In this document: piece after piece, positions 15,838-44,015 of the stretch | How positions within the stretch are numbered: position 1 is the stretch's first letter | Layout: every line of letters starts with the position of its first letter | Assembly: GCA_944358545.1 (NCBI GenBank) | Contig: CALVRJ010000002.1 | Span: 3,187 to 67,186 of the forward strand | Origin: an uncultured Bacilli bacterium | GTDB lineage: Bacteria > Bacillota_I > Bacilli_A > RF39 > UBA660 | Length of the DNA: 64,000 nucleotides | Direction: 5' to 3' | Notes under the pieces: model-generated | What the model saw: only the letters and a program-made list of their open reading frames with translations | Database searches by the model: none | What the model was told of the DNA's origin: nothing | Translations under genes and position numbers: made by a program

Positions 15838-15858
15838 ACACATAAAAGTCACAAACTT
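15838..15858. repeat. Left copy of exact 21-bp direct repeat ACACATAAAAGTCACAAACTT (candidate attL core)
   Basis: Identical 21-mer at 43995-44015; sits between the uvrB start and the integrase genes. Confidence 0.6.
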
Positions 15859-15968
15859 ACTAAAAAACACTAAGCAAACTTAAATAATATTAAACAAACT
15901 AAATAATCTAAGTAACTTCAAACTATTATGTATTTTAACATTTATAAAAATATAAGACAACCATTACA

Positions 15969-17270
15969 CTATACTAAATGTAGCTTTTTAAATACTTTAT
16001 CAAAATTCGTTGCAATATCAACAACACTTTTATTTTCGTTTAAAGGCTTAACAACATCTATATAACTATTTAAAGTATCAGATAAATCAATAACAATACT
16101 ACTTTTATCATAATAAACATCTGTTGTTATTATTGTAGAACCATGCCCTAACATAGCCGACACAGCTTTCACACTAAAGCCTTCATTTAAAAGTCTAGTT
16201 GCATAAGTATGTCTTAAATCGTGAAATCTAATATTTGGAAGATTATTTTCCTTAAGTAATTTCTTAAAATATTTATAATAAAAGCTCTTACTTCTTGGAT
16301 GACCATAAGTTGAACAACATATATAATTTAAATCCAAAAAGGGATTATTTTTATCATTAATTCTTCTACTTCTATTTCTTTCATACTTTTTACGTTCTTC
16401 CACTATTGCATTAAAAACTATATCTGGAATATTTAAAATTCTATCACTATTTTTAGTCTTTAAAGGTATTTCCTGTTTTGTATAAGTTTTCAATTTAAAT
16501 TCTTTTTTATTAGAATTCGAAACTACCCCTAATTGTCTACAAACATGTAATTTTTTATTTACAAAATCCACATCAGAATATTTTAAACCATTTATTTCTT
16601 GTTTTCTAAGCCCCATAATAACAGCAAATAAAACCTGTAAATATATGGGCGTTTCTTTGCTCTTTTCAACCAAAGTAAACACTTGCTCATCATTTAAAAC
16701 CTTAGTTGTGTCAATTTTCAAAAATCCATATTTTCCATAATCAACATTTTTAGATAAATAAATATTTTCTGATGGATCAGAACTAATTAAATCATTTTTC
16801 CTTGCAAATTGTAAAGCACCTTTTAATACTACTCTAAGCAATCTCGCAACAGACTTATGCTTTTCAGCTACTTTATCATAAATGGATTTTATATTATCAG
16901 TATTTATTTGACATAAATTAATATTTTTAAAAAATACATCTAAATAATTATAAACAATATTCTTATAAGACATATAACTATTATAAGTTATTTTAGGTTT
17001 CATAATGTTTTCAAGCCAATAATCAAAAAAATCAATAGCTTTAATTTTATTTTCCACAACATAAGTATGAGTTTCAAGTTGTAAAATTACCTTATTTCTC
17101 TCTTTATTAGCCTCGCTTTTTAAATCAAAACCACTGTGTTGCTTTATTGTAACAGTATCATCTGAAAAAAATAATTTAACTCTAAATCCATATTTATCTT
17201 TTATATTAGTAACAGAATAAACAACATAATTCACATAAGTTTTATACAATAATTTTTCAAGCATTAGCAT
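15969..17270 (-). CDS. Tyrosine site-specific recombinase / integrase 1
   Basis: C-terminal R..HDLRHTYAT...LGH...Y catalytic motifs of the phage integrase family. Confidence 0.8.
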   Translation of the reverse strand: MLMLEKLLYKTYVNYVVYSVTNIKDKYGFRVKLFFSDDTVTIKQHSGFDLKSEANKERNKVILQLETHTYVVENKIKAIDFFDYWLENIMKPKITYNSYMSYKNIVYNYLDVFFKNINLCQINTDNIKSIYDKVAEKHKSVARLLRVVLKGALQFARKNDLISSDPSENIYLSKNVDYGKYGFLKIDTTKVLNDEQVFTLVEKSKETPIYLQVLFAVIMGLRKQEINGLKYSDVDFVNKKLHVCRQLGVVSNSNKKEFKLKTYTKQEIPLKTKNSDRILNIPDIVFNAIVEERKKYERNRSRRINDKNNPFLDLNYICCSTYGHPRSKSFYYKYFKKLLKENNLPNIRFHDLRHTYATRLLNEGFSVKAVSAMLGHGSTIITTDVYYDKSSIVIDLSDTLNSYIDVVKPLNENKSVVDIATNFDKVFKKLHLV

Positions 17271-18462
17271 TTACATCAAATAAATTGTTCATGAATGACA
17301 ATATTTTTTCATCGTCATCCATAACTTCACAATAATATTTAAAAGTAGTATGAATAGATTGATGGCCTAAAAAAGCTGATATTTTTGCAAGATTTTCGCC
17401 AACATTAATTGAAGAATTTTCCAATAATATTGTTGCACACATATGTCTTAAAGCATGAACAGTTATATGAGGTAAACTCAAATCATTACATACTTTTTTT
17501 ATATGTGCATTTAATGAAGTTAATGAATGTGGTCTTCCATCAACACCACAGCTAACATAATCATTATCAACATATTTTTCTTGAAATATTTGTTTATTAA
17601 TATTTACTAATTCACTACGTTTAGATAACTCTTCTAAAACTAAGTTAGGTACTCTAATTGTTCTAAAACTATTTGAAGTTTTCGGATAATGTTCCACCAA
17701 ACGATTTTCAATAACTTTAGACGAACCTTTTATTCGTTTTCCACTTTTAACCAATTGTCTTTCAATTCTCAAAGTTTTATTCTGTAAATCAAAATCGCTA
17801 AATTTTAATGCTAATATTTCACCTTTTCTTAAACCGCAAAATAAAGCTAATAATATTTCTAAATACCAATTAGATTCACTCTCTACCTTCAAAAATTTCA
17901 TTAATTGTTTAGTATTTAATATTTTTATTTTAGGTTTTATCCTTGGATAAGTTTTAGTATCTAAAGCAATATTTTTAGTTACTATTTTTTTCTTTACAGC
18001 AAATTTAAAAGCCATAATTAAAATACTACGAACACCTTGTGCCCCATAATCCACCATTTTTGAAATTTTTAAAAGAAGCTCATCCAAATATGAAGTTGTT
18101 ACCAAACTTAATTTCACATCGTAGTCAATATTAGAAAATATTAAATTATAAATCATATATGCAGAAACAATCTCCGTAGAAAATTCTACTTTTGAAGAAT
18201 AAATTTCTTCAAACCAATAAGTTAAGTAATTTTTAAAAGTTATATCCTTATCTATTTCTTTTTTTTGACTTTTCAACTGTTCCTTAAATTCCCTTTCATG
18301 TTCATAATAAGCAATATCAGATTCTTCCTCAGTTTTATAACCTTTTTTCTTTTTATAAATTGTTTCACCATTTGGTCCAACAACTTTATATCTATGACAC
18401 CATGAAGAATATTCATAAAAAGATATACCGTTTTTTCCTTTATAAATTTTACCTCTACTCAT
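17257..18462 (-). CDS. Tyrosine site-specific recombinase / integrase 2 (overlaps integrase 1 by 14 nt)
   Basis: HALRHMCAT...LGHQSIHTTFKYY catalytic box; N-terminal SAM-like domain. Confidence 0.8.
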   Translation of the reverse strand: MSRGKIYKGKNGISFYEYSSWCHRYKVVGPNGETIYKKKKGYKTEEESDIAYYEHEREFKEQLKSQKKEIDKDITFKNYLTYWFEEIYSSKVEFSTEIVSAYMIYNLIFSNIDYDVKLSLVTTSYLDELLLKISKMVDYGAQGVRSILIMAFKFAVKKKIVTKNIALDTKTYPRIKPKIKILNTKQLMKFLKVESESNWYLEILLALFCGLRKGEILALKFSDFDLQNKTLRIERQLVKSGKRIKGSSKVIENRLVEHYPKTSNSFRTIRVPNLVLEELSKRSELVNINKQIFQEKYVDNDYVSCGVDGRPHSLTSLNAHIKKVCNDLSLPHITVHALRHMCATILLENSSINVGENLAKISAFLGHQSIHTTFKYYCEVMDDDEKILSFMNNLFDVNANA

Positions 18463-18471
18463 AAATTCACC

Positions 18472-18684
18472 CTATTCTAAATCATTTAACCAATTATCAA
18501 AAGATTTCTTAGGAATTTTGTAAAGCTTACCTATCTTTAACACTTTAAAAGGTTTTTGTGTTTTAAAGATTGCATGTATCCAACTATACGCCGTACTTCT
18601 ACCTAATCCCAACATCTTTTGAATGTCTACAACGTCATAGAACAATAAATTACTATTCATGTGGTCACACCATAAAAATAACAA
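18472..18684 (-). CDS. Excisionase/AlpA-like HTH_17 DNA-binding protein
   Basis: 70 aa, DVVDIQKMLGLGRSTAYSWI helix-turn-helix, immediately upstream of the integrases. Confidence 0.5.
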   Translation of the reverse strand: MLFLWCDHMNSNLLFYDVVDIQKMLGLGRSTAYSWIHAIFKTQKPFKVLKIGKLYKIPKKSFDNWLNDLE

Positions 18685-18713
18685 TTATTCATAAAATAAA
18701 CAAAGGTGCAAAT

Positions 18714-18926
18714 TCATTGTTTTGCACCTTTGACATTCTTAAAATGCTGTATTGAATATTTAAAATAAGGTTTATCGTCAAATATTTTATTCATATTAAC
18801 GTCATAATCAGAACATTTATTAATAAAAGATATAACTTTATTTAATGTTTTTACTTCGTTTTTTTCTCTAACTATCATTTTAATTTGTTGTACCTTTTCC
18901 ACAACAACTAAATATTCTTTCATCAC
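18714..18926 (-). CDS. Hypothetical 70-aa protein translationally coupled (ATGA overlap) to mazF; candidate downstream antitoxin
   Basis: 4-nt overlap with the mazF stop; no recognizable domain. Confidence 0.35.
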   Translation of the reverse strand: MMKEYLVVVEKVQQIKMIVREKNEVKTLNKVISFINKCSDYDVNMNKIFDDKPYFKYSIQHFKNVKGAKQ

Positions 18927-19258
18927 ATACCTCCTAAACTCAAAGAAATAACAATAGCTCTATTTATTTCTTTAATTTTTTTATCTGATAACTTACATAC
19001 AAAGAGTTTTAATCTACTTTTATCAATAGCACGTATTTGTTCTAATAAAACATTAGAAGAATATTTAATAAAATTATTCGGCTTTAAATAAACATGTGTT
19101 GGCAAATTAAGAATTTTAGAAGTAATTGGAGCTACAATAGTTGTCGGACTATATCTGTTTCCGACGTTATTTTGAATTATAACAACTGGTCTTGTTCCAC
19201 CTTGTTCACTTCCCTTGACAGGATCTAAATTAGCATAATATATTTCACCTTTTTTCAT
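18923..19258 (-). CDS. mazF: MazF/PemK-family endoribonuclease toxin
   Basis: GEIYYANLDPVKGSEQGGTRPVVIIQNNVGNRYSPTTIVAPITS is the classic PemK/MazF core. Start placed at ATG 19258 (RBS AAGGGGA 7 nt upstream) rather than the track's 19309. Confidence 0.75.
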   Translation of the reverse strand: MKKGEIYYANLDPVKGSEQGGTRPVVIIQNNVGNRYSPTTIVAPITSKILNLPTHVYLKPNNFIKYSSNVLLEQIRAIDKSRLKLFVCKLSDKKIKEINRAIVISLSLGGM

Positions 19259-19728
19259 TAACATTCCCCTTTCAAAAACATCACAAATAAAATATGTAAA
19301 AAAAAACAATAAGAATAATAAAATCCTATTGTTTGTAAATAATCATAATTAAAATTTTCCTCCTCGCCCTAATTAGGGATTTATCAAACGACTAATTGCT
19401 AATTAGTTCCATAGGAATTTCACCTCAACTGTGGTTCTCACAGAGCCGTTCCGATTGATTGAGTCTATCGCTAAACGGAAGTATCATTATACTTTTAATT
19501 TGTCATCGCAAAATTAAGAGCAACTTAATTTTTATAACCAAATATTTATCGCTAACTATTTAATATAGATTACTGCGTATTTGTTAACGTGCTATAATTA
19601 AAAGAACGTATTTGATAAATGCTATTTGATTATCAAAGAACAAACTTATTTCTAAAAAAGAAACAAGTAAAAGGAACTTATCCTTCCAATTGTTTCCTAA
19701 ATAAAGAGTGATTTAACAGACACAAATT

Positions 19729-20202
19729 TTATTTTTTTAATATTTTTTTCAAGTTTTCTAACGCTCGTTTTAAAACAATATGAACAGATTGTTGTGTAGC
19801 ATTCTCTTCTTCAGCTATTTCTCTCTCGGTTTTCTCTTGAAAATAATATTTTTTAATCCTTCTTTTTTGTACATTGGGCAATTTATCTATTGCTTTTTTT
19901 AGCTCTTCAAAAGCACATTTATTAATAACCTCATCTTCTAAACTTATGGACTTATTAATAGCACGACTATTTAAATTATTTTCAAATATTTCAGAATGTT
20001 CAATATGGTTATCATATTCATTCATTTCTGATAAATCTTCTAACTCAAATTTATCTAAAGCATTAAAAATCTCTTCACTTATTTCTACCTTTTGAATAAT
20101 TCCACGACTATCTTTAAAAGACACTATATAAACCTTACAAACATTATCTATTTCAAGTCTATACGGATTATCCTTATACCTTCTTCTTTTAGGTCTTTGC
20201 AA
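19729..20202 (-). CDS. Sigma-70 family region-4 protein (Tn916 Orf7-like conjugative-element regulator)
   Basis: C-terminal region 4 HTH (EREIAEEENATQQSVHIVLKRALENLKK); divergent N-terminus. Confidence 0.55.
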   Translation of the reverse strand: MQRPKRRRYKDNPYRLEIDNVCKVYIVSFKDSRGIIQKVEISEEIFNALDKFELEDLSEMNEYDNHIEHSEIFENNLNSRAINKSISLEDEVINKCAFEELKKAIDKLPNVQKRRIKKYYFQEKTEREIAEEENATQQSVHIVLKRALENLKKILKK

Positions 20203-20685: not shown

Positions 20686-20732
20686 CACCCAAAAATAAAC
20701 ACTTTAAATTAATTTAACAATACAATCTTTTA

Positions 20733-20782: not shown

Positions 20783-21220
20783 TTAAATTTTTAAAATCAT
20801 TTTCCCTTTAACTTGATTTAAAGAAATTGTACCAAAGTTTCTTCCATCATAAGAATAAGGACGATTATCTCCTAAAACAAGTATTTTGTTGTTTTCAACA
20901 GTAACACTAAAATCATCTGTAAAATTTCTTTCAAACGGTTCCTTAATTTTTTTATTGTCAATAAACAACTTATTTTTATTAAATTCAACTTTATCTCCAG
21001 GTAATCCTATAATTCGTTTAACATACAATTTGTTATCCACTTTAACTATAACTATATCAAAATAATTAAGTTTAATATTATTCTTTTTATATAAAACAAT
21101 ATCATTATTATGCAAATTAGGTTTCATAGAATTACCATCAACTTTAAAAAGGCCAAAGGAAAAACAAAAATATAAAACAATTGCTAAAAATATTAAATAT
21201 ATTATTAATGAAATTTTTTT
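20783..21220 (-). CDS. Signal peptidase I (S26); true N-terminus extends upstream of the track ATG with no canonical start
   Basis: Track ORF 20783-21127 has box D/E (VKRIIGLPGD, VLGDNRPYSYDGRNFG). The codon immediately upstream of the track ATG is Ser, giving the catalytic S-M. The frame stays open to ~21244, encoding a basic/hydrophobic signal anchor (IKNKKISLIIYLIFLAIVLYFCFSFGLFKVDGNSM), with only ATA/ATT as possible starts. Confidence 0.65.
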   Translation of the reverse strand, partial: KKISLIIYLIFLAIVLYFCFSFGLFKVDGNSMKPNLHNNDIVLYKKNNIKLNYFDIVIVKVDNKLYVKRIIGLPGDKVEFNKNKLFIDNKKIKEPFERNFTDDFSVTVENNKILVLGDNRPYSYDGRNFGTISLNQVKGKMILKI

Positions 21221-21225
21221 ATTTT

Positions 21226-21855
21226 TTATAAATGCAATATGGCATCACATTCTTGAGCTAATTGTTCATTATGAGTTACCATAATTATAGTTTTTCCTTG
21301 TTTATTTAACTGTTTTAAAATACTCATAACTTTTCTTGCATTAGAATTGTCTAAATTTCCAGTTGGTTCATCAGCTAAAATAATATCTCCTTTTTTTAAC
21401 ATAATACGAGCCAAAGCTACTCTTTGCTGCTCACCTCCAGATAAAGTATAAACCTTCTTATTATTATAAGATGCCAAACCTACTTTGTCTAAAGCTTCTG
21501 ATACTTTTTCTTTTTTTTCTTTCAACGGAATTTTTTCATATTCCAAAGCCAAAAGCAAATTATACTCAACACTTTCATCATCTATTAAAGCATAATTTTG
21601 AAATAAATAGTTTATATTGTTACGGATATATTCATTTACTTGTTTTTCTTTTAACATAGCAACATCTTTTCCGTTAAACAATACTTCTCCAGTATAATCA
21701 AAATCTAATAAACCAATTATATTTAATAAAGTACTTTTACCACAACCACTTTTTCCAACAATAGCCACAAATTCACCATTATTTATTTTATAAGATAAAT
21801 CTGTGAATATAATCTTTTCACCAAAAGATTTACTTACTTTCTTTAATTCAATCAT
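21226..21855 (-). CDS. ABC transporter ATP-binding protein (bacteriocin export/immunity)
   Basis: Walker A GKSGCGKST, signature LSGGEQQR, Walker B IILADEPTG. Confidence 0.85.
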   Translation of the reverse strand: MIELKKVSKSFGEKIIFTDLSYKINNGEFVAIVGKSGCGKSTLLNIIGLLDFDYTGEVLFNGKDVAMLKEKQVNEYIRNNINYLFQNYALIDDESVEYNLLLALEYEKIPLKEKKEKVSEALDKVGLASYNNKKVYTLSGGEQQRVALARIMLKKGDIILADEPTGNLDNSNARKVMSILKQLNKQGKTIIMVTHNEQLAQECDAILHL

Positions 21856-24019
21856 TTGCTCCTCCTTTTAAATCAATATAAACTTTATTAAACTTATATT
21901 TCTGAATTACAAATATAGATATTAAACAATCAATTATCAAAAACAACGATACAGATATAATAAACAAAATAATATTAAGTAAATTTAAAATTAAAAGAAT
22001 AAAGAAAGATATAACTAAGGCAATAACAGTATACAAAATATTTCTCTTCATTATTGGTTCAAAAATTTTAAATTTATCAAATCCTAACAAATATTTCACT
22101 ACAACAGACTGTTGTTCACTTTTAACATATAATGAAAATACTTCAATAGAAATTATAAAGTAAACCAAAACAATCAAAGCAACTCCTAAACACACTACTA
22201 ACATTATTAACCTTGCACGTTGAATTTCGTCATTAAAATAATCTTTAAATGACATAAAATTACTTTGGCCAATCAAATTACTCAAACCAGCTTTTTTTAC
22301 ATCATCTAATACATAATCTAAAGTATTACTATTAACTTTTATTTTTAACCCCGTTGTTAATGAATTGCCAAATACGCTAATTCCTCTAGAACTTTCAATA
22401 TAGGATAATTTTATTGAATCATCAACAACACGTAATCTAGGATTTTTAACATATTTAACACTTAAATCTAGTCTATACGAATTAAAAGATTGATCATCAT
22501 ATAAATACGCTTTAAATTCAAGAGGTATATTATATTTTTCATAATCTTTTTTAGAATCTTCTAAATAATACTTTTTAAATTTTGGAACGATATTTTTTTC
22601 GCTTTTAGCAAACAAGAAAAATACTCCATCAATATTATCAATATCTACCAATTGACCATTTAAATTATATATTTTTATATTCTCTTTTTTTAAATAATTT
22701 CTATCAACAGAAGCATAATCAAAATATTTACCTTCACTTTCCCATTTTTTTATTCTTCTTTCTTCATCAGGTTTTACTTTTACATAATTACTAAATTGAG
22801 AATAAAATGTGGATAGCCTTTTATCATTATATATAATGTTATATAAATTAGCTTGTTTATCATAATCATATATTTCAGGTGAATCAGCATTAAAATCTTT
22901 TATAATTCCATAATCCAATAACTCTTTAGAATTATTATAAACTTTTAACGATGAATTTAAAGATGAAATAGAATTTCCTAATAAAGAAATGCCAACAATC
23001 ATCATTATAGTCATTAAAAGCTTTAATTTAGCACTTGTTTTGCCAATCTTTATTGCAACATTTTGTTTTTTTATAATATTAGAAGTGCGATAACTTTTTA
23101 AAATAAGATTAACACAAAGCATATTCAAAAAATAAGTAATTAACAATAACAAACATGTAATAATCAGCAAGAATAAGAACTGTAAAAGATTCATATTACT
23201 TGCTAAAATCAATGCTAAAATTAAAATAATAATTGAAAAAATAATATATATTTTTAGTTTATTTTTTATCATAATATTAGAAATTTTTATTTTGTCAAAA
23301 CCTAACAACTTCATACAACCAATTTTTTTAGAATTATAATAAGTATCATAAATTTCAAAAACAAAATAAAATATCATTATAAATATAATACTAAATACCA
23401 ACAATATAAATGTTTCGGTTTGCAAATCTGTAATTGATAAGCTGGTAGATATATCTTTATCAACAATTTTTTTTATTTGATTACTAAAATTAACAAAATC
23501 ATCGTAATTCTTGTAATAAACCAAATATTCACCATAATAATTTCCTTTTTCATTTATTAATGTCGAAAAAGTATAAAAATTATATTTGTCATTTTCCAAA
23601 AAATCTTTTATTAAAAAAACTTGTTTACTATCTTGATGATTATATGTAGAAATAAAAGAATCATCTGTTATTTTTTTATTTAATGACACAACTTTAAATT
23701 TTTTACTAATAATTTTTTTTATTTTGTTAATATTATCTAAAGAAACATAAACATTTTTTATAGAACCATCTTTACCAGAAATGTTTGATTTAGCTAAAAC
23801 AACTTTATTATCTTGTGCTAATTTTGCCACTTCTTTCATAGATTTATCATTAATAACGATATCATCGCTATAATTAATTCTAATGGAATCTCTACTATAT
23901 CCAAAAAAGTTCAAATATTGACTCGATTGAGAAAAATTTAGAAAAAGAATAGAAATAATTATTGCTACCAATATACATAAAATAGGTATTATTCTAGTTA
24001 CATATTTCAAAAAAACCAC
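21848..24019 (-). CDS. Bacteriocin-associated large integral membrane protein (Lcn972 ORF2-like, FtsX-like permease)
   Basis: 723 aa, N-terminal TM, large extracellular domain, two clusters of 3-4 TM helices; sits between the bacteriocin and ABC ATPase as in the lactococcin 972 operon. Confidence 0.6.
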   Translation of the reverse strand: MVFLKYVTRIIPILCILVAIIISILFLNFSQSSQYLNFFGYSRDSIRINYSDDIVINDKSMKEVAKLAQDNKVVLAKSNISGKDGSIKNVYVSLDNINKIKKIISKKFKVVSLNKKITDDSFISTYNHQDSKQVFLIKDFLENDKYNFYTFSTLINEKGNYYGEYLVYYKNYDDFVNFSNQIKKIVDKDISTSLSITDLQTETFILLVFSIIFIMIFYFVFEIYDTYYNSKKIGCMKLLGFDKIKISNIMIKNKLKIYIIFSIIILILALILASNMNLLQFLFLLIITCLLLLITYFLNMLCVNLILKSYRTSNIIKKQNVAIKIGKTSAKLKLLMTIMMIVGISLLGNSISSLNSSLKVYNNSKELLDYGIIKDFNADSPEIYDYDKQANLYNIIYNDKRLSTFYSQFSNYVKVKPDEERRIKKWESEGKYFDYASVDRNYLKKENIKIYNLNGQLVDIDNIDGVFFLFAKSEKNIVPKFKKYYLEDSKKDYEKYNIPLEFKAYLYDDQSFNSYRLDLSVKYVKNPRLRVVDDSIKLSYIESSRGISVFGNSLTTGLKIKVNSNTLDYVLDDVKKAGLSNLIGQSNFMSFKDYFNDEIQRARLIMLVVCLGVALIVLVYFIISIEVFSLYVKSEQQSVVVKYLLGFDKFKIFEPIMKRNILYTVIALVISFFILLILNLLNIILFIISVSLFLIIDCLISIFVIQKYKFNKVYIDLKGGAND

Positions 24020-24067
24020 CTCTTACAACAAAAAGTGGAGAATAAGAAATTCTCCACGACATTATTC

Positions 24068-29765: not shown

Positions 29766-29794
29766 TATAATACCTTTCCTTCCATAACATCTAT

Positions 29795-30631: not shown

Positions 30632-30642
30632 TTATTATTCTC

Positions 30643-32758: not shown

Positions 32759-32763
32759 AACAA

Positions 32764-35608: not shown

Positions 35609-37078
35609 TTATTCATAAAAGAAAAAGTTTATTTCATCAGTACCAATAATGGAATCTATATTTTCTATTTCAGTTTCATTTATCAATACAGATTCATCAA
35701 TCTTAAAAGGAAGCCAAGAAGAATTCCATAATTCTTCTTTACAACCATAAACTTTTTTAGCTAATAAAGTAGAGTATTCTTTATCTCTGTTAAACTTTAA
35801 AGTTATACGCTGCAAACACATATTTATGTCATCTGTATTAGGTATTTCTTTAAATTTATTTCTAATACTTTCTATATAATAATCTATCTTATCAGTACAA
35901 AAGCTAAGTAACTTACTTAATATCCCTGAACAAGCCATATATGATTTAGGATTTCTAATTAATATATCGGTAGTTATACTGATTAATTGTTCCAAACATT
36001 CTGGTTCTTCTTCTAAATCTTTCAATTTTTTTTCATAGAAATTTACAAGCATTTTTTTTACAAAACTACTGTTTGGATTTTTCAAAGAAAACTGTCTTAT
36101 TTTTAATAACCAGTTTAAAATACTTTTATCTTCAACTATCAAAAACAAACTATTCAATTTATCTTGTTTAATAGAATTAGATATAACATCATCACAAACA
36201 AAAGTCTTTTTAGTATTAAATTTCATGTTTAATTCTGATAAAACTTCTGATAAAATTTTCAAAATCTTTTCTAAATCAGATTTACTATTTGAAAAAATTC
36301 TATAATCATCTCTAAATCGTATTATCTTATAATCATATATATCTTTTAATCTTTCAGATAATAACATATCTGCATATCCTAAAACTATTTCGGCAATAAA
36401 ATCCATTAATACACTTCCCTGAGGAATACCATTTGTTTGTCCATATGACATACATTGTATTCTCTCATCAATGATATTACCTATTATAGGGTCAAAGCGA
36501 TGGTCTTTCGCATATAATTTATCATGTATTGCCCACGAAATAGAATGAGTATATATAGAACTATAGCAATTTTCAATATCCGCATGAGCCATATATTTAT
36601 AATTCAAAGATAATTGTATACTTCGATTTTCAATGTTCTCTAACCAATTATCTATTATATTTGCAGTAGAACTTTTATCATTATCCGAATCAAAAGGAAT
36701 ACTATAACATTCAATATTACATAAATTTCTAAATTGTTTTAATCGTTCTGTTATAATTTTCCAATTATCAGGTTTTGTTATTTCATAAACTAAATCTATA
36801 TATAAAATTGGATGTATTATTTGCAGTTGTCGCCAAGTATATTTACCATCCTTGTTCGACATATAATTGTAATTAACATTCTCACATTTTTTAACTTGTT
36901 TTATTAAGTCTTTATCAAGTTTACATGAAAGATCATAAAAATATTTACATTCTGACATTTTTAATAAAGCACCAAAATCAAAATATTTTGGCAAATCAAT
37001 CGAACAATAATTAGAACCTTCTAGGAAAAAAAGCTTTGCTTGATTAGCCTCCATATCTATAACGCTTAATCTTTCCAT
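35609..37078 (-). CDS. Reverse transcriptase-like protein (Abi/unknown-group, putative defence RT) embedded in the mob operon
   Basis: RT palm motifs: A (MAHADIENCYSSI), B (GIPQGSVLMDFIAEIVL), C-like (IIRFRDDYRIF). No maturase/X or endonuclease domain and no canonical YADD. Confidence 0.6.
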   Translation of the reverse strand: MERLSVIDMEANQAKLFFLEGSNYCSIDLPKYFDFGALLKMSECKYFYDLSCKLDKDLIKQVKKCENVNYNYMSNKDGKYTWRQLQIIHPILYIDLVYEITKPDNWKIITERLKQFRNLCNIECYSIPFDSDNDKSSTANIIDNWLENIENRSIQLSLNYKYMAHADIENCYSSIYTHSISWAIHDKLYAKDHRFDPIIGNIIDERIQCMSYGQTNGIPQGSVLMDFIAEIVLGYADMLLSERLKDIYDYKIIRFRDDYRIFSNSKSDLEKILKILSEVLSELNMKFNTKKTFVCDDVISNSIKQDKLNSLFLIVEDKSILNWLLKIRQFSLKNPNSSFVKKMLVNFYEKKLKDLEEEPECLEQLISITTDILIRNPKSYMACSGILSKLLSFCTDKIDYYIESIRNKFKEIPNTDDINMCLQRITLKFNRDKEYSTLLAKKVYGCKEELWNSSWLPFKIDESVLINETEIENIDSIIGTDEINFFFYE

Positions 37079-37131: not shown

Positions 37132-37446
37132 TTATATTAAAAATTCTTTTTTTATATCTATAATAAATTTGTTCAACTTTTCTGTTTCTTTGTTATATGA
37201 ATCTCTATCTATATAATTTAAATGATTGGCTTTCTTTGCAATTTGATTTAAATTATTTCCTATATATCTAAGTTGTTTAATTGCCTCATAAAACCTATCA
37301 TCAGGTTTTTCTCTCGGCTGAAAATTCATTATTAAATTACGTAATAAAGTAGCCTCATTTAAACCGGTTTTTTTAGCTTGTTTTTTTAACTGTGTAGCTT
37401 CTTCTCTATTAAGCCATATTTGTTTTTTTATATTTCTTTTTCTCAT
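37132..37446 (-). CDS. mobC: MobC-family relaxosome accessory protein
   Basis: FYEAIKQLRYIGNNLNQIAKKANHLN is the MobC signature (L..IGNNLNQIA). Start placed at ATG 37446 (MRKRNIKK...). Confidence 0.6.
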   Translation of the reverse strand: MRKRNIKKQIWLNREEATQLKKQAKKTGLNEATLLRNLIMNFQPREKPDDRFYEAIKQLRYIGNNLNQIAKKANHLNYIDRDSYNKETEKLNKFIIDIKKEFLI

Positions 37447-37544
37447 TTTATTACATTTCCACCTTTCAAACTTAAATTTCCCACATATATAAACCATAAT
37501 TTTATTAGAATATTACGGGAGTAAATATTCAGTGCTTGCTAGGA

Positions 37545-37578
37545 CAAAAATTCAGACCTAAAAAAATCTGAATTTAAT
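37545..37578 (-). terminator. Hairpin AAATTCAGA(N11)TCTGAATTT plus T-run: terminator after the primase-like gene and/or oriT-associated inverted repeat upstream of mobC
   Basis: 9-bp stem read directly; T-run on the minus strand; ~90 nt upstream of mobC. Confidence 0.4.
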
Positions 37579-37598
37579 CCTTAAACACACTGAAAAAA

Positions 37599-38540
37599 TC
37601 ATCGGCTTTCTCTATCTATGTTCCTCTTTACATAACATAAAAAATCATTAAAATCTTTACAAATTACAGCTGGCTTATCAAACACTTCATATCCGCCTGA
37701 TAAAACATTGCTTATCGCTTTAGCTGATAACCTACCTACATCATCATTATCTAAATGTAAAATAATCCTTTTTATATTTGGATTATTTTTTAAATAATTA
37801 AGTAATGACGAAGGCAAATTACTATACCTAAGATTATTTGGAACATAAACTCCACCAAATGATAACAAGTTATATTTATGCCAGTCAATATTACTCATTT
37901 TTAATATAGTAGCATAAGATAACAAGTCAATTGCACTTTCAAACAAATGTAGATCTTTATTCTTCACGTCAGAACTAATTCTAAATGAATACTCTTTACA
38001 GCTTCCAGTTACTTCCTTAATAAATCTATGTTGTCCGGTGCCTCTGCACATTGCATATTTTGGCACTTTATTTTCATTATATCCAACAAAAACTACATTA
38101 TTATTAACATCTTGATAAATAAGACTATTATTTATACATTCATTAATAATTGAATCATCAATACCTCTTTTAGTTAAATACTTTATTGCTACATCGTTAT
38201 TTTTAGCTTTAACTGGTAACTTAAACATTGTTTTATTAACTTCTGGACACTTAGAAATATCTAGATTCTGAACCATATTAATTTTATCTAATATTATTTT
38301 CATAGAATCCATAAAACTATAACCTCTAACTTTAATTAAATAATCTAATGCGCTCTTTCCACCAATGCTTTTTGAAAACCAATACCACATACCATTAGAA
38401 ATCTTTAAACTATCATGAGTCTTTGTCGTATAGTTTCCTCTACAAACAACAATCAGTTCATCTGGCTCAAAGTTCTGCAAATATGTTAGTAAATCGATTT
38501 GTTTTACTTTTTGAATTGTATTTTTTGAATAATAAGGCAT
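37599..38540 (-). CDS. DUF3991 plus Toprim domain protein (putative conjugative primase)
   Basis: Toprim acidic motif IILHLDNDDVG; preceding ESAIDLLSY region typical of DUF3991 proteins of Firmicutes ICEs. Confidence 0.5.
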   Translation of the reverse strand: MPYYSKNTIQKVKQIDLLTYLQNFEPDELIVVCRGNYTTKTHDSLKISNGMWYWFSKSIGGKSALDYLIKVRGYSFMDSMKIILDKINMVQNLDISKCPEVNKTMFKLPVKAKNNDVAIKYLTKRGIDDSIINECINNSLIYQDVNNNVVFVGYNENKVPKYAMCRGTGQHRFIKEVTGSCKEYSFRISSDVKNKDLHLFESAIDLLSYATILKMSNIDWHKYNLLSFGGVYVPNNLRYSNLPSSLLNYLKNNPNIKRIILHLDNDDVGRLSAKAISNVLSGGYEVFDKPAVICKDFNDFLCYVKRNIDRESR

Positions 38541-38545
38541 AATTA

Positions 38546-38770
38546 TTATCTTTCCAATTCTTTCTTTTTGGCTTTTTCATTAAATAATGTTTCAATATAT
38601 TCCTTAATATTAATCTCTTTAATAGCTTCTGAATCAAGGACATATTCGCCACTATAATATTTTTCTTTCACAATGTTAATAGCATCCTTCAAAGACTTGG
38701 ATTTAACTTCAACAACATCTTGTAAAATTTCCTCTATTTCTATTTTGTATGTTTTCATTTTATCCTCCAA
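38546..38770 (-). CDS. Hypothetical 74-aa protein
   Basis: ORF only. Confidence 0.3.
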   Translation of the reverse strand: MEDKMKTYKIEIEEILQDVVEVKSKSLKDAINIVKEKYYSGEYVLDSEAIKEINIKEYIETLFNEKAKKKELER

Positions 38771-38820
38771 TCTAAAAAAGTGCTTTAATTATATACAATC
38801 AAAACACTTTATACATGTTT

Positions 38821-39117
38821 TCAAATTTTTTCATTTAAACCTTTAATAAATATTTCCTTAAGTTCAATATCGTATTTTCTTTGTTTCACATCTAATAACA
38901 ATATAAGATTATTCACCTCTTCCATTGTAAGTGAACATGCTTCTTTATCTTCTAATACTTTTCGTATACGTGGATAATTATTTAATATTAATTCTTCTTT
39001 TTTGCAATAATAATTATATTGTTTGTTTTTCCTTTTTAGTTCACATAATACATCAGAAAAAAACTCGGCAAAACATTTATTGATTGCATAATCTTTTATA
39101 AAACTTTTTTTCATCAC
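38821..39117 (-). CDS. Hypothetical 98-aa protein
   Basis: ORF only. Confidence 0.3.
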   Translation of the reverse strand: MMKKSFIKDYAINKCFAEFFSDVLCELKRKNKQYNYYCKKEELILNNYPRIRKVLEDKEACSLTMEEVNNLILLLDVKQRKYDIELKEIFIKGLNEKI

Positions 39118-39202
39118 ATTGCCCCACTTTCAATATTAATTTTATACAAAACAATTAAATATTTACAATGTGCAAATAAATAAGTCTACATTATTGACAA
39201 AA

Positions 39203-39538
39203 CTATCTTTCTTGTTCATTTTCTTTATATTTAGTAGATAAAAAAGTAACCTTCTCCGCAATTACTTCCATAACAATTCTATTATTTTCATCGTTATTGT
39301 AAGTTTGAAGACGACCTTTAATACCAACAAGATCACCTTTCTTACAATATTCAGCCGTATTAGTAGCAATTCCTTGCCACAATTTACAATTTACAAAGTC
39401 AGTTTCATACTCACCATCTTCATTTTTAAAAGACCTTGGCACTGCCAATGTTACATTTGTATACTTCTTTCCGCTTTCAGTTTCATAAACCTCTGGTTCA
39501 TTTGCTAAACGTCCTACTAAAACTACCTGATTTAACAT
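39203..39538 (-). CDS. ssb: Single-stranded DNA-binding protein (plasmid/ICE type, no acidic tail)
   Basis: OB-fold N-terminus MLNQVVLVGRLANEPE...; 111 aa. Confidence 0.75.
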   Translation of the reverse strand: MLNQVVLVGRLANEPEVYETESGKKYTNVTLAVPRSFKNEDGEYETDFVNCKLWQGIATNTAEYCKKGDLVGIKGRLQTYNNDENNRIVMEVIAEKVTFLSTKYKENEQER

Positions 39539-39683
39539 TTACATCACAACCTTTCCTTTTTTATTTAAAAGTGTTCAATCATTTTATTAGTTTTTAAATA
39601 GAAGCTTTTTTCAAAAACATTTTCCTATCTACGCATATAAAAGTAATAACTTCCTACCTAAGTTTTCATCTCCTTAAGAATTT

Positions 39684-40325
39684 TTAATATTTCTCTTTTG
39701 AATTTAAGTAATTAATATAAATAGTTTGCTCTGTATCGTTATTTTTGGTACAAGTAATTAACGTTAAAGTACTTTTATTTGAATTACGTTGTATTTTTAC
39801 TTTGCCAGTTTTTTTCACGTTATAAATGTTATCTAAAATATACTCATATTTTATTCCAGAATAATAAATATACACTTTAGCACCTGTTTTTAATTTATAT
39901 AAATTTTTAAAATAAGATATATTACTAGTTCCAGAATGTGCTGCCAAAATCAAATTTCCTTTATCAACATCAGGAAATTGTGAACCTTCAATAATTTGGA
40001 TTCCTTTATCAACATCATTTCTAAAAGAATTAAAATCTACAAGTCCTGTTTTTAATAAAACAGAAGGTATTTCTAACACTGCAATATAAACATTTTCTGA
40101 TTGACTATTTACATTTTTAATTTCTGTATTTGATTTATTATTTTGCTTGAAAAAAGCGTCTACAGATTTCTCATTTTCAATTAAAGGTTCTTCATATTTA
40201 TAAAGATTATAGGTATATAACGTTATTCCAATAAGAAGTAAAAAAAGGCCTAATAGTAATAGACCTTTTGAATTCTTATTCTTTTTTACTTTTATTTCTT
40301 CTTTTTTTAACTTCATCATAAACAA
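39684..40325 (-). CDS. Sortase (probably class B) dedicated to the adjacent adhesin
   Basis: N-terminal TM, catalytic His (LILAAHSG) and TLITC Cys motif. Confidence 0.7.
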   Translation of the reverse strand: MFMMKLKKEEIKVKKNKNSKGLLLLGLFLLLIGITLYTYNLYKYEEPLIENEKSVDAFFKQNNKSNTEIKNVNSQSENVYIAVLEIPSVLLKTGLVDFNSFRNDVDKGIQIIEGSQFPDVDKGNLILAAHSGTSNISYFKNLYKLKTGAKVYIYYSGIKYEYILDNIYNVKKTGKVKIQRNSNKSTLTLITCTKNNDTEQTIYINYLNSKEKY

Positions 40326-41841
40326 TAATTCCTATTCCAGCAGCACATATAATAACAGCGATTATATTACCAATGTTAGATTGATTTTTTTGAGTATTAG
40401 GTACATTAACAATTTGTTCATTGGTCATTGTAGCTTTAACTATTTCACCATTTTCTTTGATTTCAAAATAAACTTTTTCATCTGATAATTTATAACCAGT
40501 AGCAGGATTACGTTCTATAATATAATATTTTTGACCAGCGAGTAAATCTGTAATGACAATCTTTCCATTCTCATCTGTTACTCCTTGATAAACGAGTCTA
40601 TCATCTTCTGTGAAAATCATTATCTCAGTGTTTGGAATAACATTACCATTGGTAAAGTCAAGTTTTGTAAACTCGAGTGTCCCTTTTGGTAAATAGTTTT
40701 GAATGTCTAATTTTTTAATAATCTTACCATTCACTAAATCATTTTTAGTTGTTTCAAAATAATATTTTTCATTACTTACCATATTTCCTTGTGCTGATTT
40801 ACCTTCAACTAAGAAATATTTACCGTAATACATATTTTCAAGTTTAACAAATCCAAGTTTATCTGTTGTTAAAGTATCAATAAGATCATATTTTTTATAA
40901 ATAACTTTACCAGTACTATCAACTATATCTTCATTTGCATAAATTGCAAATTCAACTTCAGGTAAATTTATTGTTTCATAACTATAACTGCCATTAGAAT
41001 AAACAATTTTTTCGCCTTTCTTATTAATTTCAACAGAACCACCATTAGATTTAATTTTTATTTCAAAATTTAACGGATTACTAATTCTTAATGTAGCTAA
41101 TGTTTGAGAACTCTCTTTATAGTAAATCAAATTAACTTGATTATCATAGTTTTTCTTAACAAACTTAAGAGTTTCTTCACCAATAAAATTATCATCTAAT
41201 TTAATATCTAAATTATTAACATTAACTGATACTTTGTTTTGTCCATTATAATTAAGACTAAATTGATTTAATACTTTGTTTGTATCGTTTAAAACAATTT
41301 CATCACCCATGTTAGCTTCAATTTTATCATTTGCAAAACTAGGTAAAGAACTATAATTATTCACCAAATTTAAAATATCATTCTTTTCTTTAGTTAAATC
41401 AATTTCTGTACCACCATTTCGTTCTGTGGTATATTTTGTTTCTACATTTCTTGCTTTTTCCCAAATAAGTTGTTGAGCAGCCATATAATATTTATCTGTT
41501 TGATGACCAGGGTATTCATAACCGAAATAACCAACTTTTTCAATAAAATCTTCTTGTTCATCCGAAAGACCAACTACACTCCAATCAGTTGTTGAATTGT
41601 ATGTGTGATCAGTTATTTGAACTAATGGTTCAATACAATAAGCTAACTTTTCATTTAAATAAAACTTGTTAGCGTGTCCAGTCATTATCTTACCGGTATC
41701 TTTATCTTTCTGATAATAATAAGCCCCATCTATTACTTCTTTTGTAAACTGTGAATCATTCTCCGCTGCCTTAACTGTATTAGCCGAACCAACTGAAAAA
41801 ATTGGTAACAAAGCTAAAATAATTCCTAATAATTTTTTCAT
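40276..41841 (-). CDS. Sortase-anchored surface adhesin: thioester domain plus 2 Cna-B/prealbumin-like domains (TIE-protein-like)
   Basis: Signal peptide from MKKLLGIILALLPIFSV. Cys in AYCIEP and Gln in AAQQLIWE match the thioester [YF]C / TQxA(I/V)W pair. Two TDENGKIV...GQKYY.IE-type Cna B repeats. C-terminal VPNTQ-hydrophobic-KKRRNK sorting signal. Track start 41889 lies inside an upstream terminator hairpin. Confidence 0.5.
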   Translation of the reverse strand: MKKLLGIILALLPIFSVGSANTVKAAENDSQFTKEVIDGAYYYQKDKDTGKIMTGHANKFYLNEKLAYCIEPLVQITDHTYNSTTDWSVVGLSDEQEDFIEKVGYFGYEYPGHQTDKYYMAAQQLIWEKARNVETKYTTERNGGTEIDLTKEKNDILNLVNNYSSLPSFANDKIEANMGDEIVLNDTNKVLNQFSLNYNGQNKVSVNVNNLDIKLDDNFIGEETLKFVKKNYDNQVNLIYYKESSQTLATLRISNPLNFEIKIKSNGGSVEINKKGEKIVYSNGSYSYETINLPEVEFAIYANEDIVDSTGKVIYKKYDLIDTLTTDKLGFVKLENMYYGKYFLVEGKSAQGNMVSNEKYYFETTKNDLVNGKIIKKLDIQNYLPKGTLEFTKLDFTNGNVIPNTEIMIFTEDDRLVYQGVTDENGKIVITDLLAGQKYYIIERNPATGYKLSDEKVYFEIKENGEIVKATMTNEQIVNVPNTQKNQSNIGNIIAVIICAAGIGIIVYDEVKKRRNKSKKE

Positions 41842-41871
41842 AAATAATTTCTTCCTTTCTAATTCTTCAAT

Positions 41872-41896
41872 AAAAAAAGCGATTACCAAGATCGCT
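41872..41896 (-). terminator. Hairpin AGCGAT(N7)ATCGCT plus T7 between the par genes and the adhesin gene
   Basis: Read directly; T-run on the minus strand. Confidence 0.4.
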
Positions 41897-42139
41897 CATG
41901 TCTAACACTTATAGCAAATATAAACAAACATTTTAATACTATTAATACAAGTGATAATAATAATTTACAAACTGAAAAAATGACAATACCAAATATGCTA
42001 AAAATATTCTTAATCATATAAAACAACTCCTTTGAGTTTATATTAAATCACAATATATATTTTTTACAAGTATATAGATATTCTTTCAGTTGGTATTTAA
42101 TAATTAATATATAATTATATTTAGTAAAATTTACTCCCA

Positions 42140-43090
42140 CTATCTTTCCATCTGATGTCTTTCTTTTTGCTTTTTACAGTAATATTCAACTGCTTTAATT
42201 ACAAATTCCTCTTTTTCTTTTTCAGAAACCAAATTTTGTGGAAGTATATTTCTTAAACGATTCATATTGATTTTTAGTTTTTGAACTTGATTAGGTTTTT
42301 CAATATTTAAAATGTTTTCAATTGTTGAATAATCTAATTTACTTTTTTGACTTAATTCTTTTAACTGAATTGCCTGACTTAATGAAGGTGTAATCAAACT
42401 ACATTCTATAAAATCAGACAACATCGTTTGCTCTTCTTTTGATAAAAACGAAATTTCAACAGCCGGTCGTAAAGCTATACTCGGAGTATTACCTAAAACA
42501 TTATTATCAACAAATTTTAAAATGTCAGGTATAAGCTCTGTTAAACGAATATATCTTTGAACTTGTCTACCACTTTCACCAAATTCTTTACCTACAAGTT
42601 CAGCACTACTAAACTTATCGACCACTGGTCGCAAAGTTAAGATATCTTTTTTACCTTGATGCTTTATTGCCTCCAGTTTCATTTTATAAGCAAATGCTCT
42701 CTCGCTAGGGAGTATCTTTTCCCTTTGCATATTACTATCGACCATAATAATAGTTGCTTCATCATCGGTTAACTCCCGAATAATACACGGCATAGTTGTC
42801 TTTCCAGCAATTTCACTTGCTCTTTTTCTTCGATGACCAGAAATCATTTCATATCTACCGTTTTTTGGACGTATTATAGCAGGTACTAAAACACCACTTT
42901 CTCTTATACTATCAGCCATCTCAAATAATTCATCATTATCATTGACTTTAAATGGATGATTTTCAAATGAATCAATTTCAGATAAATTTACATCTACTAT
43001 CTTTTGAGCATTATTATATATGCGTTCTTCTTCCGTTGAAAATAAATCATCTAACTTGTTCAATCTTTCCGACAAATCGTTCTTTTTCAT
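42140..43090 (-). CDS. parB: ParB/KorB-like partition protein
   Basis: ParB box II ISGHRRKRA; overlaps parA. Confidence 0.7.
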   Translation of the reverse strand: MKKNDLSERLNKLDDLFSTEEERIYNNAQKIVDVNLSEIDSFENHPFKVNDNDELFEMADSIRESGVLVPAIIRPKNGRYEMISGHRRKRASEIAGKTTMPCIIRELTDDEATIIMVDSNMQREKILPSERAFAYKMKLEAIKHQGKKDILTLRPVVDKFSSAELVGKEFGESGRQVQRYIRLTELIPDILKFVDNNVLGNTPSIALRPAVEISFLSKEEQTMLSDFIECSLITPSLSQAIQLKELSQKSKLDYSTIENILNIEKPNQVQKLKINMNRLRNILPQNLVSEKEKEEFVIKAVEYYCKKQKERHQMER

Positions 43091-43868
43091 TGCTTATCAC
43101 CTCCAAAGCAAGAGAACAATATGCTTCAGATACCGGATTTTTTCTATCATAAGATAAAATACTTTTACCATAAATAGAAGATTCTGCGGTTTTTATAGCA
43201 ATTGGTATTTTTGATTTAAAAATATTTAATTGTGAACCGTATTCACTATGCAATAATTCATCTACGTTTTTAGATAAATTAGTTCTACGATCAAACAATG
43301 TCAATAAAACACCAGCAATTGATAAATTAGGATTTATTTGTCTTCTAACTTTATTGATAGTTTGTATTAATTGTGTCATTCCACGAAGTGCCAAATATTG
43401 ACTTTGAACAGGAATTATAACTTCATCTGAAGTAGCTAATGCATTAACAGTAATCATTCCCAACGATGGTGAACAATCAATCAAAATATAATCATATTTT
43501 TTCTTCAAATCATATATACATCTTTTTAATGTATACTCCCTACTCATGGCGTTAACTAAAGACATTTCCATAGCTGATAAATCCAAATTTGCGGGAATCA
43601 AATCTAGTCTTTCCTTATGATGTAATATAGCTTTATCAAAATATATAAGCTTATCATTCATAGATTGTTCCATTAAATCAGCTAAAGTTAAAGGTAATTC
43701 ATCCGAGTTATACCATCCCATATAAGTTGTTAAGTCTCCTTGAGGATCTGTATCAACTAATAAAACCTTTTTTCCAGCATTAACCAAAGCTACACCTAAA
43801 TTAAATACTGTTGTTGTTTTACCAACACCACCTTTCTGATTAACAACAGCAATAATTTTACCGTCCAT
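43047..43868 (-). CDS. parA: ParA/Soj family partition ATPase
   Basis: Deviant Walker A NQKGGVGKTT; 273 aa. Confidence 0.85.
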   Translation of the reverse strand: MDGKIIAVVNQKGGVGKTTTVFNLGVALVNAGKKVLLVDTDPQGDLTTYMGWYNSDELPLTLADLMEQSMNDKLIYFDKAILHHKERLDLIPANLDLSAMEMSLVNAMSREYTLKRCIYDLKKKYDYILIDCSPSLGMITVNALATSDEVIIPVQSQYLALRGMTQLIQTINKVRRQINPNLSIAGVLLTLFDRRTNLSKNVDELLHSEYGSQLNIFKSKIPIAIKTAESSIYGKSILSYDRKNPVSEAYCSLALEVISNEKERFVGKIEQVR

Positions 43869-43886
43869 TTTTATCCCTCCTTTCCA

Positions 43887-43919
43887 TAAAAAAAAGCCAT
43901 CTTAAAAAATAAAATGGCT
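43887..43919 (-). terminator. Hairpin AGCCAT(N13)ATGGCT plus T8 immediately upstream of parA
   Basis: Read directly; would block read-through from the uvrB-fragment promoter. Confidence 0.4.
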
Positions 43920-43994
43920 ATGTACACAAGCAAAATATGTTAAAAAGGTAAATACCATCGTTACCAAAATTAAATTTTTAATTATACTTTCGCC

Positions 43995-44015
43995 ACACAT
44001 AAAAGTCACAAACTT
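43995..44015. repeat. Right copy of 21-bp direct repeat ACACATAAAAGTCACAAACTT (candidate attR core)
   Basis: Exact match to 15838-15858. Confidence 0.6.

Follow-up and report, generated by a model that had tools for sequence, protein, structure and literature searches.

A probable integrative and conjugative element placed within the uvrB coding sequence of an uncultured Bacilli bacterium

The stretch of DNA analysed here, referred to as the window, consists of 64,000 nucleotides of contig CALVRJ010000002.1 (GenBank assembly GCA_944358545.1) from an uncultured Bacilli bacterium, and very probably contains a 28.7-kb integrative conjugative element (ICE) placed by site-specific tyrosine recombination within the coding sequence of uvrB, at codons Val88-Ser89-Tyr90. 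This explanation, graded as a whole, takes in the ends of the element, the 5' part of uvrB that it carries, the inferences of paired integrases and arm sites, and transfer by a relaxase and type IV secretion system. The element extends from about 15452 to 44134 (28,675 bp, from the first copy of the core GTTTCATA to the second) and has the same composition as its surroundings, with a G+C content of about 27% throughout the window. An earlier note, made from the sequence of the window, had called an ICE here, and this identity was borne out by domain searches that returned the recombinases and a transfer module that is complete-looking from its sequence. The element encodes integration and excision enzymes of its own (two recombinases with their catalytic residues kept and a HTH_17 protein) and a relaxase, coupling protein, VirB4 and mating-pore accessories, and it has discrete ends with an empty target in related genomes. 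It is evidently a real and recently mobile ICE, of an ordinary kind except for an integration module that is apparently undescribed.

Ends of the element and the divided uvrB gene

A repeat search of the window returned a 278-nt direct repeat of 88% identity (15443-15720 and 44118-44395) that consists of the 5' end of uvrB in two copies, the replacement carried by the element having been overlooked in the earlier note. One copy begins the intact uvrB gene (13768-15720, minus strand, as are all features below unless stated otherwise) and the other forms a 92-aa open reading frame (ORF; 44117-44395). Such a duplicated gene end is a signature of intragenic integration with replacement of the displaced part. 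Empty sites were sought among contigs encoding exactly the 246-aa host protein that neighbours the uvrB stub. In eight contigs of the same species the 246-aa gene is followed, after 74 bp, by an intact 650-aa uvrB, and in two further contigs it is followed by the stub and then ParA. The empty-site sequence is that of the right junction of the window up to ...GAATATTTCGT (ending ...TTCGT) and that of the left junction from TATTATGATTATT (TATTATGATT) onward. Because the identity with the empty site switches at these positions, the true ends were placed at 15452-15459 on the integrase side (attR, attachment site) and at 44127-44134 on the far side (attL). Both contain the core GTTTCATA, with the hexamer TTCATA at 15452-15457 the likely place of strand exchange. 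The far arm, from the junction to parA (43869-44126), is missing from empty sites and constant among hosts.

The ends had previously been taken to be a 21-bp direct repeat (ACACATAAAAGTCACAAACTT). This 21-mer does occur exactly twice in the window, at plus-strand positions 15838 and 43995, with no third copy at up to two mismatches and none in 100 shuffles. Measured from those coordinates, however, the true ends are 386 bp further out on the left and 119 bp on the right, so that both 21-mers are inside the element, about 380 nt from its end on the integrase side and about 110 nt on the far side. An alignment of the two ends gave no convincing extension of the 21-mer past about 22 bp. The search for empty sites in related genomes, a check proposed in the earlier note, succeeded, but the site was not the predicted one, upstream of uvrB and carrying a single 21-mer: none of the eight empty-site loci carries the 21-mer, which is present in all three occupied loci. 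The association with the uvrB 5' region and the flanking core genes stood, while the insertion itself proved to be within codons 88-90 of the coding sequence, in a conserved protein motif, and not upstream of the gene.

The intact uvrB (650 aa) is chimeric, with codons 1 to about 88 from the element and the remainder native, as delineated by the ORF, the Pfam UvrB domains and the empty-site breakpoint. Element-borne codons 1-87 (15460-15720) are shared by identical elements in divergent hosts. The orphaned native 5' end (44117-44453), made up of the 92-aa ORF and a native promoter-like site found in a promoter scan (44453-44425), is identical to the 5' part of the intact uvrB in empty-site contigs. 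Over codons 1-87 the element and native copies differ at 31 of 261 nt, and since the changes are nearly all at third positions (28) and alter one residue (S32N), both copies have evolved as coding sequence. The breakpoint recurs among loci with near-identical integrases. Between loci L038 and L039 the DNA of the integrase Int1 is 100% identical and uvrB nt 1-255 are 99.2% identical, but nt 286-900 only 64%; for L043 and L044 the values are 99.9%, 100% and 66%. Host-specific sequence begins, in several such sets, with the wobble base of Val88, directly after ...TTTGT, and orphan uvrB fragments in loci of the family always stop at residue 89-92. The element carries a copy of uvrB codons 1-88 and 248 bp of upstream DNA beside its integrase genes; with its 5' part joined to the host 3' part, a full-length 650-aa uvrB is therefore rebuilt on integration, and the host 5' end and promoter are left 28.7 kb away as a 92-aa stub. 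No LexA box was seen by eye upstream of either uvrB start.

The element-borne 5' sequence (...CCGGAAAACGCCGTCGAGTACTTTGT) equals the native uvrB 5' end of two other hosts, designated B and D, over the ~40-70 nt compared (window 15460-15720 against the stubs of L093, L097, L099 and L016), whereas it is only 88% identical (278 nt) to that of the window host. This suggests that the window species is a secondary host and that the uvrB copy came from the B/D lineage.

Strand exchange was bracketed to about 6 bp comprising the wobble base of Val88, the Ser89 codon and the TA of Tyr90, with the site written as ...TTTGT / n1-n4 TA / y TATG... and n1-n4 TA termed the hexamer. In the window the hexamer is TTCATA at both junctions, with y being C at attL and T at attR. 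In host B, on one scaffold, it is TTCTTA at both, again with C at attL and T at attR. Host D, also on one scaffold, has CAGCTA at attL and TAGCTA at attR, with C at both, and host C has CAGCTA with C at attL. Two single junctions, of attL or attP type in L016 and of attP type in L106, read CAGTTA and TAGTTA respectively, each followed by C. Base y is element-derived at attL and host-derived at attR, while the hexamer tracks the host or a previous host. Because it varies between hosts and between copies of the same element, the hexamer is not a fixed part of the element. The predicted attP form is ...GAGTACTTTGT-NNNNTA-CTATGTTTAAC..., and heterology within the overlap would appear to be tolerated, as with the coupling sequences of Tn916/Tn1549. 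All mapped junctions of the family lie at the same uvrB codons, and the far ends of Lachnospiraceae relatives start directly after ...TCCTA. The half-sites flanking the overlap have no dyad symmetry by eye, although this was unscored, and asymmetric half-sites would fit the binding of each by a different recombinase. In the empty-site loci L001-L004, L006 and L008-L010, Ser89 is encoded by AGC, TCG or TCA (for example L001:11080-11082). This switch is the sole run of three adjacent substitutions in 7 kb and follows two host clades. Speculatively, it may be a synonymous footprint of past ICE integration and excision.

Paired recombinases and the boxes in both arms

Homologues of Int1 number 1366 at E<=1e-10 in the protein collection, and a scan of 185,579 species-representative genomes gave 278 tblastn-confirmed relatives, from which 80 loci were kept for examination of their neighbourhoods. 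The hosts of these loci are Bacilli and 'Tenericutes' metagenome-assembled genomes (MAGs), Candidatus Coprosoma, Lachnospiraceae, Dorea, Blautia and an Oscillospiraceae MAG, and include Merdimonas faecis, Acetatifactor muris, Eubacterium plexicaudatum ASF492 and Clostridium sp. Marseille-P3244. In 74 of the 80, Int1 is followed downstream by a uvrB gene whose start is 202-2792 nt away (median 309).

Two tyrosine recombinases with PF00589 domains are encoded at the integrase side. Int1 (433 aa, 15969-17270) adjoins the att site, and its gene overlaps that of Int2 (401 aa, 17257-18462) by 14 nt. The catalytic R-H-R-H-Y set is conserved in both, with R212, H336, R339, H367 and Y377 of Int2 kept in at least 95% of 56 homologues. 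Among the 68 loci with enough upstream sequence, Int2 is found beside Int1 at full length in 61 and as a remnant in five, and is missing from two. A HTH_17 protein (18472-18684; PF12728, E 4.5e-8), encoded upstream of Int2 in most loci, is a candidate excisionase (recombination directionality factor). In the structure model of Int1 (predicted local distance difference test score, pLDDT, 80.6) an N-terminal β-sheet and helix precede the core-binding and catalytic domains, and invariant residues are numerous in the N-terminal region. Both recombinases gave sub-threshold matches to Arm-DNA-bind_4. NCBIfam Xer models scored far below their cut-offs, and plasmid and phage collections gave no annotated relative of Int1 more than 30% identical, the best being generic 'site-specific integrase' entries. 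Int2 and Int1, both catalytically intact, would act jointly, and both may be required, with the HTH_17 protein serving as the excisionase.

The proximal arm is the spacer (15721-15968) between int1 and the element-borne uvrB 5' part (uvrB'). It contains one 21-mer, direct repeats and the presumed uvrB' promoter in a layout kept across the family, and no terminator was predicted within it. The 21-mer of this arm (15838-15858; minus-strand reading AAGTTTGTGACTTTTATGTGT) precedes uvrB' by 118 nt. Three direct repeats GYAACGA(G)AATTT are found at 15760-15770, 15782-15792 and 15824-15836, with a fourth at 16003-16013 within the 3' end of int1; the exact motif GYAACGAATTT has three matches in the 64-kb window, all within 15760-16013. 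Spacers of relatives carry equivalent pairs of NNACGAATTT, and the layout of the family comprises ATTTAGT-like repeats, a box AWTTTGTGRC-N-ATTCGTGT, two direct NNACGAATTT repeats and a conserved stretch before the ribosome-binding site, the 21-mer of the window being the local form of the box. An identical 21-mer is present in L012 despite an Int1 that is only 75% identical. TTGTGRC occurs in 56 of 67 distinct spacers (shuffle mean 2.3). The bipartite box is present in 40 of 67, compared with none in 200 shuffles, and its median distance to the uvrB' ATG that follows is 145 nt. The far arms of L067, L071, L075, L079, L082 and L085 contain an equivalent box, set ~110-120 nt inward from the junction. 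The pair is present in all family members for which both ends are available, and the proximal and far boxes of one element match at 21 of 21 positions in the window, 22 of 23 in L082 and 21 of 23 in L079.

From their sequence and placement, the boxes are probably protein-binding sites in both arms of attP, either for the N-terminal domains of the integrases or for an excisionase or regulator. This reading is favoured, and the N-terminal domain in the Int1 model, the invariant N-terminal residues and the sub-threshold Arm-DNA-bind_4 matches all fit it. The two 21-mers, when bound, would help to assemble the recombination complex, with the far copy also overlapping the parA promoter.

With the boundaries unchanged, the box could tentatively be read instead as a promoter or operator for sigma-like or helix-turn-helix (HTH) regulators that co-regulates the parA-led operon and uvrB'. 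The far box (43995-44015) supplies the -35 of the best sigma-70-like promoter there, upstream of parA (44009-43981, GTGACT-17-TATAAT, 10/12), the element encodes both a sigma-70 region-4 protein and a double-HTH regulator, and the proximal box stands at a short distance from uvrB'. However, the proximal box has no -10 at the proper spacing, the promoter scan having found no sigma-70 promoter at this 21-mer; the far-arm boxes of Lachnospiraceae have no obvious -10 and are followed by unrelated first genes; and the far-arm box keeps a constant distance from the junction, as an arm site would. Roles in recombination and transcription can, moreover, coexist. A terminator-like hairpin (43895-43919, minus strand) of 10 pairs followed by a T-run comes after the promoter-like site that the box overlaps and before the start codon of parA, and suggests a regulated leader for the parA-led operon. 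A parS role for the box was dropped on inspection by eye, the box being non-palindromic and present in far arms where the first gene is not parA.

Movement between hosts and competing explanations

By exact-protein look-ups of ParA and Int1, the same element was located in no fewer than four different gene neighbourhoods, in each case behind a uvrB stub of 91-92 aa. Across these hosts the DNA of the element is 99.7-100% identical, whereas their uvrB genes are 84% identical to that of the window over nt 271-1950 and 73-87% over the 5' stub. Occupied and empty strains of the window species are about 1% apart. On these identities, transfer between hosts is the likely course. In L106 and two similar places, int1, the proximal box and uvrB' run on through TTTGT-TAGTTA-CTATG into the far arm, which has its own box, and parA. 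Such a joint would be expected of a circular or tandem form, and the L106 sequence matches the attP predicted from the ends of the window at 946 of 951 positions, three of the five mismatches being in the Ser codon. This joint is not proof of excision, because an assembler could thread a 262-nt repeat where the native 5' end equals the element copy. The predicted attP, the far end and the 21-mer gave no matches in Joint Genome Institute (JGI) metagenome contigs and IMG/VR, collections without the element and therefore uninformative. L106 came from the exact-protein index, which does contain it.

That the element is a fixed genomic island with relic repeats, no longer mobile, is very improbable. 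The L106 joint may indeed be an assembly artefact, but the element is polymorphic in presence among closely related strains, is near-identical in hosts 13-26% apart at uvrB, and has all its recombination and transfer genes intact with catalytic residues kept.

Several further observations concern individual copies and their hosts. Contig L100 (BRZ_IF NODE_1460, 28,821 bp) is nearly the size of the element, and its start lies 82 nt ahead of the far-side junction. An assembly graph broken at att sites, with the element in several hosts of the sample, would give such a contig. In L016:1-4153, a contig of a Candidatus Coprosoma intestinipullorum MAG, the element-type uvrB 5' piece, far arm, ParA and ParB 1-214 are joined directly to Int1 73-325, an arrangement that could be due to misassembly or to an internal deletion in the same element. 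In host D a group II intron-type reverse transcriptase (RVT_1 and GIIM) lies directly upstream of the uvrB stub (L097:2984-4255, L099:2218-3489). An insert downstream of whiA, present in some strains of the host species (L001:17621-20741, L004:11143-14263) but missing from the window and L011, contains DUF6273, a MutS_I fragment, bAvd and a reverse transcriptase; its gene set is typical of a diversity-generating retroelement.

Tandem accretion at uvrB was seen in Lachnospiraceae (L067:2001-5400, L079:11710-19030, L071:11594-11863, L075:2301-2570), where uvrB' is followed by the far end of a second element before the real uvrB. Second elements are smaller, at ~3 kb and ~7 kb, with no integrase match in those intervals, and look like mobilisable or decayed passengers on the same att site. 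L082:1-9800 holds a decayed relative of ~9.3 kb with both junctions, both boxes, Int1, an Int2 fragment and pieces of ParA and the type IV coupling protein (T4CP). These arrays, in which an orphan uvrB' precedes the far end of another element, and the presence of two integrase genes could be taken to mean that the window holds two nested or tandem elements with one integrase for each att site, the uvrB core and the 21-mers. This is hardly credible, given that int2 and int1 overlap and co-occur as a pair in most loci, that excision at the 21-mers would leave a gene-less remnant of ~500 bp with a uvrB' copy, of which none was seen, and that the outer and inner parts always move together, at 99.7-100% identity in five host contexts.

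The model of the earlier note, in which the 21-mers are an att core duplicated on insertion upstream of uvrB, can practically be discarded: the repeat is exact, confined to two copies and flanks all the ICE genes, but it is missing from every empty site, where the sequence switches at uvrB codons 88-90 and not at the 21-mers; excision of 15859-44015 would leave the uvrB stub followed, after 240 bp, by a second uvrB start, and no contig is arranged in this way; the attP-type joint keeps both 21-mers, ~760 bp apart; and other family members also have box pairs inside their ends. A conspicuous exact repeat that is not the att site is a typical annotation trap, corrected here.

Certain points weigh against the explanation preferred here, that of a mobile ICE with paired integrases and arm sites. 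The fit of the far-arm 21-mer to a promoter -35 makes a purely transcriptional role possible. Selection of matching overlaps, or repair, could mimic tolerance of heterology, and the L106 joint may reflect a tandem array, or the passage of an assembler through the 262-nt repeat, whose copies are exact in some hosts. Co-conservation is the single argument that both integrases are needed, and no VirB8-like component was identified in domain searches of the element proteins.

Gene content and relation to known elements

Gene content was assigned by Pfam, NCBIfam and PADLOC profile searches of the window proteins, which upheld nearly all earlier gene calls, namely the recombinases, relaxase and MobC, T4CP, VirB4, Toprim, SSB, ParAB and CHAP; the VirB6-like call has a match, though a weak one. 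The block had been described as uniformly minus-strand, which is true of all element genes except that of a double HTH_3 (Xre-type) regulator on the plus strand (24855-25295; PF01381, two stretches, E 7e-25). Behind the HTH_17 gene, a pemK RNA motif (19409-19490; Rfam RF02913, 55.7 bits against a gathering score of 34.8), a MazF/PemK toxin (18923-19309; PF02452, E 2e-32) and a 70-aa ORF (18714-18926) together occupy 18714-19490. The motif lies in a 400-nt untranslated stretch upstream of the toxin gene, and the 70-aa ORF follows the toxin, rather than a recognisable antitoxin preceding it. The MazF assignment of the earlier note agreed with the PF02452 match. A 157-aa protein with sigma-70 region 4 only (19729-20202; PF08281, PF04545) is a candidate regulator kept in many family members. 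A cargo region (20783-24406) encodes an S26 signal peptidase, an ABC ATPase, a 723-aa membrane protein and a 112-aa secreted peptide, and is a putative bacteriocin/immunity module. The 112-aa ORF had been called an Lcn972 bacteriocin but has no Pfam or NCBIfam match up to E=10; only its 723-aa neighbour bears a weak resemblance to TIGR01654, a family of bacteriocin-associated membrane proteins (E 2e-7; 29.8 bits, with the cut-off at 189).

The transfer module (25378-35576) comprises a CHAP hydrolase, VirB4 (PF19044/PF12846), PrgI, a 94-aa ORF, the VirB6-like protein, a small pilin-like ORF, a VirD4-type T4CP (PF02534), a 261-aa ORF, DUF3801 and a MobA/VirD2 relaxase (PF03432). Among annotated relatives of VirB4, the closest (45-71% identity) bear the name 'CD1110 family', and by domain content (this VirB4, PrgI, CHAP, a VirD4-type T4CP and a MOBP-type relaxase) the module is of CTn4/Tn1549 type (CTn, conjugative transposon). 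The excised circle would be nicked by the MobA/VirD2-type relaxase with MobC, and the nicked element would be transferred through a CTn4/Tn1549-type Gram-positive type IV secretion system. The reverse transcriptase noted previously was confirmed, and belongs specifically to the AbiP2 defence class (35609-37078, full length; PADLOC PDLC03744, E 1e-170). The remaining genes up to the far arm (37132-43868) encode, by domain searches, NikA/MobC, DUF3991-Toprim, PcfM, DUF6664, SSB, a sortase, a TED-SpaA adhesin, ParB and ParA. The adhesin with its sortase corresponds to the thioester adhesin of the earlier note.

Targeting of the 5' ends of housekeeping genes is established. The SXT element has one integrase and a 17-bp att identity. 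By the account attributed to Hochhut and Waldor in 1999, SXT reportedly supplies its target with a new promoter and 5' coding sequence. The window element differs from SXT in phylum, integrase, target and transfer system, replaces 262 nt of coding sequence, and has two recombinases and a variable overlap. The target of SXT/R391 is the 5' end of the housekeeping gene prfC (PMC4344509). Streptococcal ICEs (Ambroset et al. 2016) have integration sites at the 5' end of ftsK or rbgA, where the reported repeats are 12-54 bp long and overlap the gene start, and uvrB is not among the 18 integration specificities listed (PMC4701971). The window element resembles these in being a Firmicute element with a site-specific tyrosine integrase, a housekeeping-gene end as target and flanking direct repeats, but its insertion lies 262 nt into the gene and its repeat is 278 nt long.

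The Int of Tn916/Tn1549 has arm-binding, core-binding and catalytic domains, and its 5-7 nt crossover can be heteroduplex and inherited from a previous host (PMC5871717). The window element shares a small Xis-type partner and a transfer module of related clostridial CTn type, and its crossover is likewise variable, the hexamer differing among copies and between attL and attR in one scaffold. In contrast to Tn916/Tn1549, with many AT-rich sites, a single Int and no gene restored, it uses one uvrB codon triplet and two recombinases; low target specificity was not found, 74 of 80 loci lying directly upstream of uvrB, and the integrases have low sequence similarity to those of Tn916/Tn1549 (E 1e-6 and 7e-4). 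CD1110 lies within CTn4 (CD1091-CD1118) of Clostridioides difficile 630, a 30.5-kb element for which excision and transfer have been shown (PMC3158075). The window element is similar in size and module content, a likeness drawn from the 'CD1110 family' annotation of VirB4 relatives and from descriptions, but its integration module and target are not those described for CTn4.

The literature searched held no uvrB-targeting ICE or prophage, the only hit being an engineered insertion in a plasmid 'uvrB' gene, and no conserved two-tyrosine-recombinase integration module in Firmicute ICEs, only Xer papers. Tyrosine systems with two different recombinases include XerC/XerD and TnpA/TnpB of Tn554; Xer is not known to use arm sites, nor Tn554 to make repeats. 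The pair described here resembles them in that two different tyrosine recombinases are encoded, with no homology beyond the common catalytic fold. What appears to be new is a widespread and apparently undescribed module that is specific for uvrB, has two recombinases and a variable overlap, and restores the gene with a segment of 262 nt. More doubtfully, a single such module may be conserved in gut Bacillota as different as small-genome Bacilli MAGs, Lachnospiraceae and Oscillospiraceae (the 278 matches in species-representative genomes), in which a heteromeric integrase pair recognises an invariant uvrB codon triplet, tolerates any overlap sequence, rewires uvrB and, on repeated visits, leaves synonymous Ser89 (AGC to TCA) footprints among the hosts.

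If so, strict site choice would be combined with Tn916-like tolerance of heterology, and paired recombinases in site-specific recombination with a variable overlap are relevant to the mechanism of tyrosine recombinases. Gene flow in gut Firmicutes is carried mainly by ICEs, most of which are undelimited; exact ends and an att site are now given for this widespread group, and the signature of int2-int1, box, uvrB 5' copy and orphan 92-aa uvrB stub lends itself to automatic delimitation in MAGs. The element moves between divergent hosts with defence genes (AbiP2 reverse transcriptase, MazF), adhesion genes and a putative bacteriocin module. A core DNA-repair gene also has its promoter and its first 88 codons under the control of the element. 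Were the tentative module-wide reading true, uvrB would be expressed from element DNA amid recombinase-binding boxes, the host uvrB promoter would read into the parA-led operon, and nucleotide-excision repair and ICE activity could be coupled.

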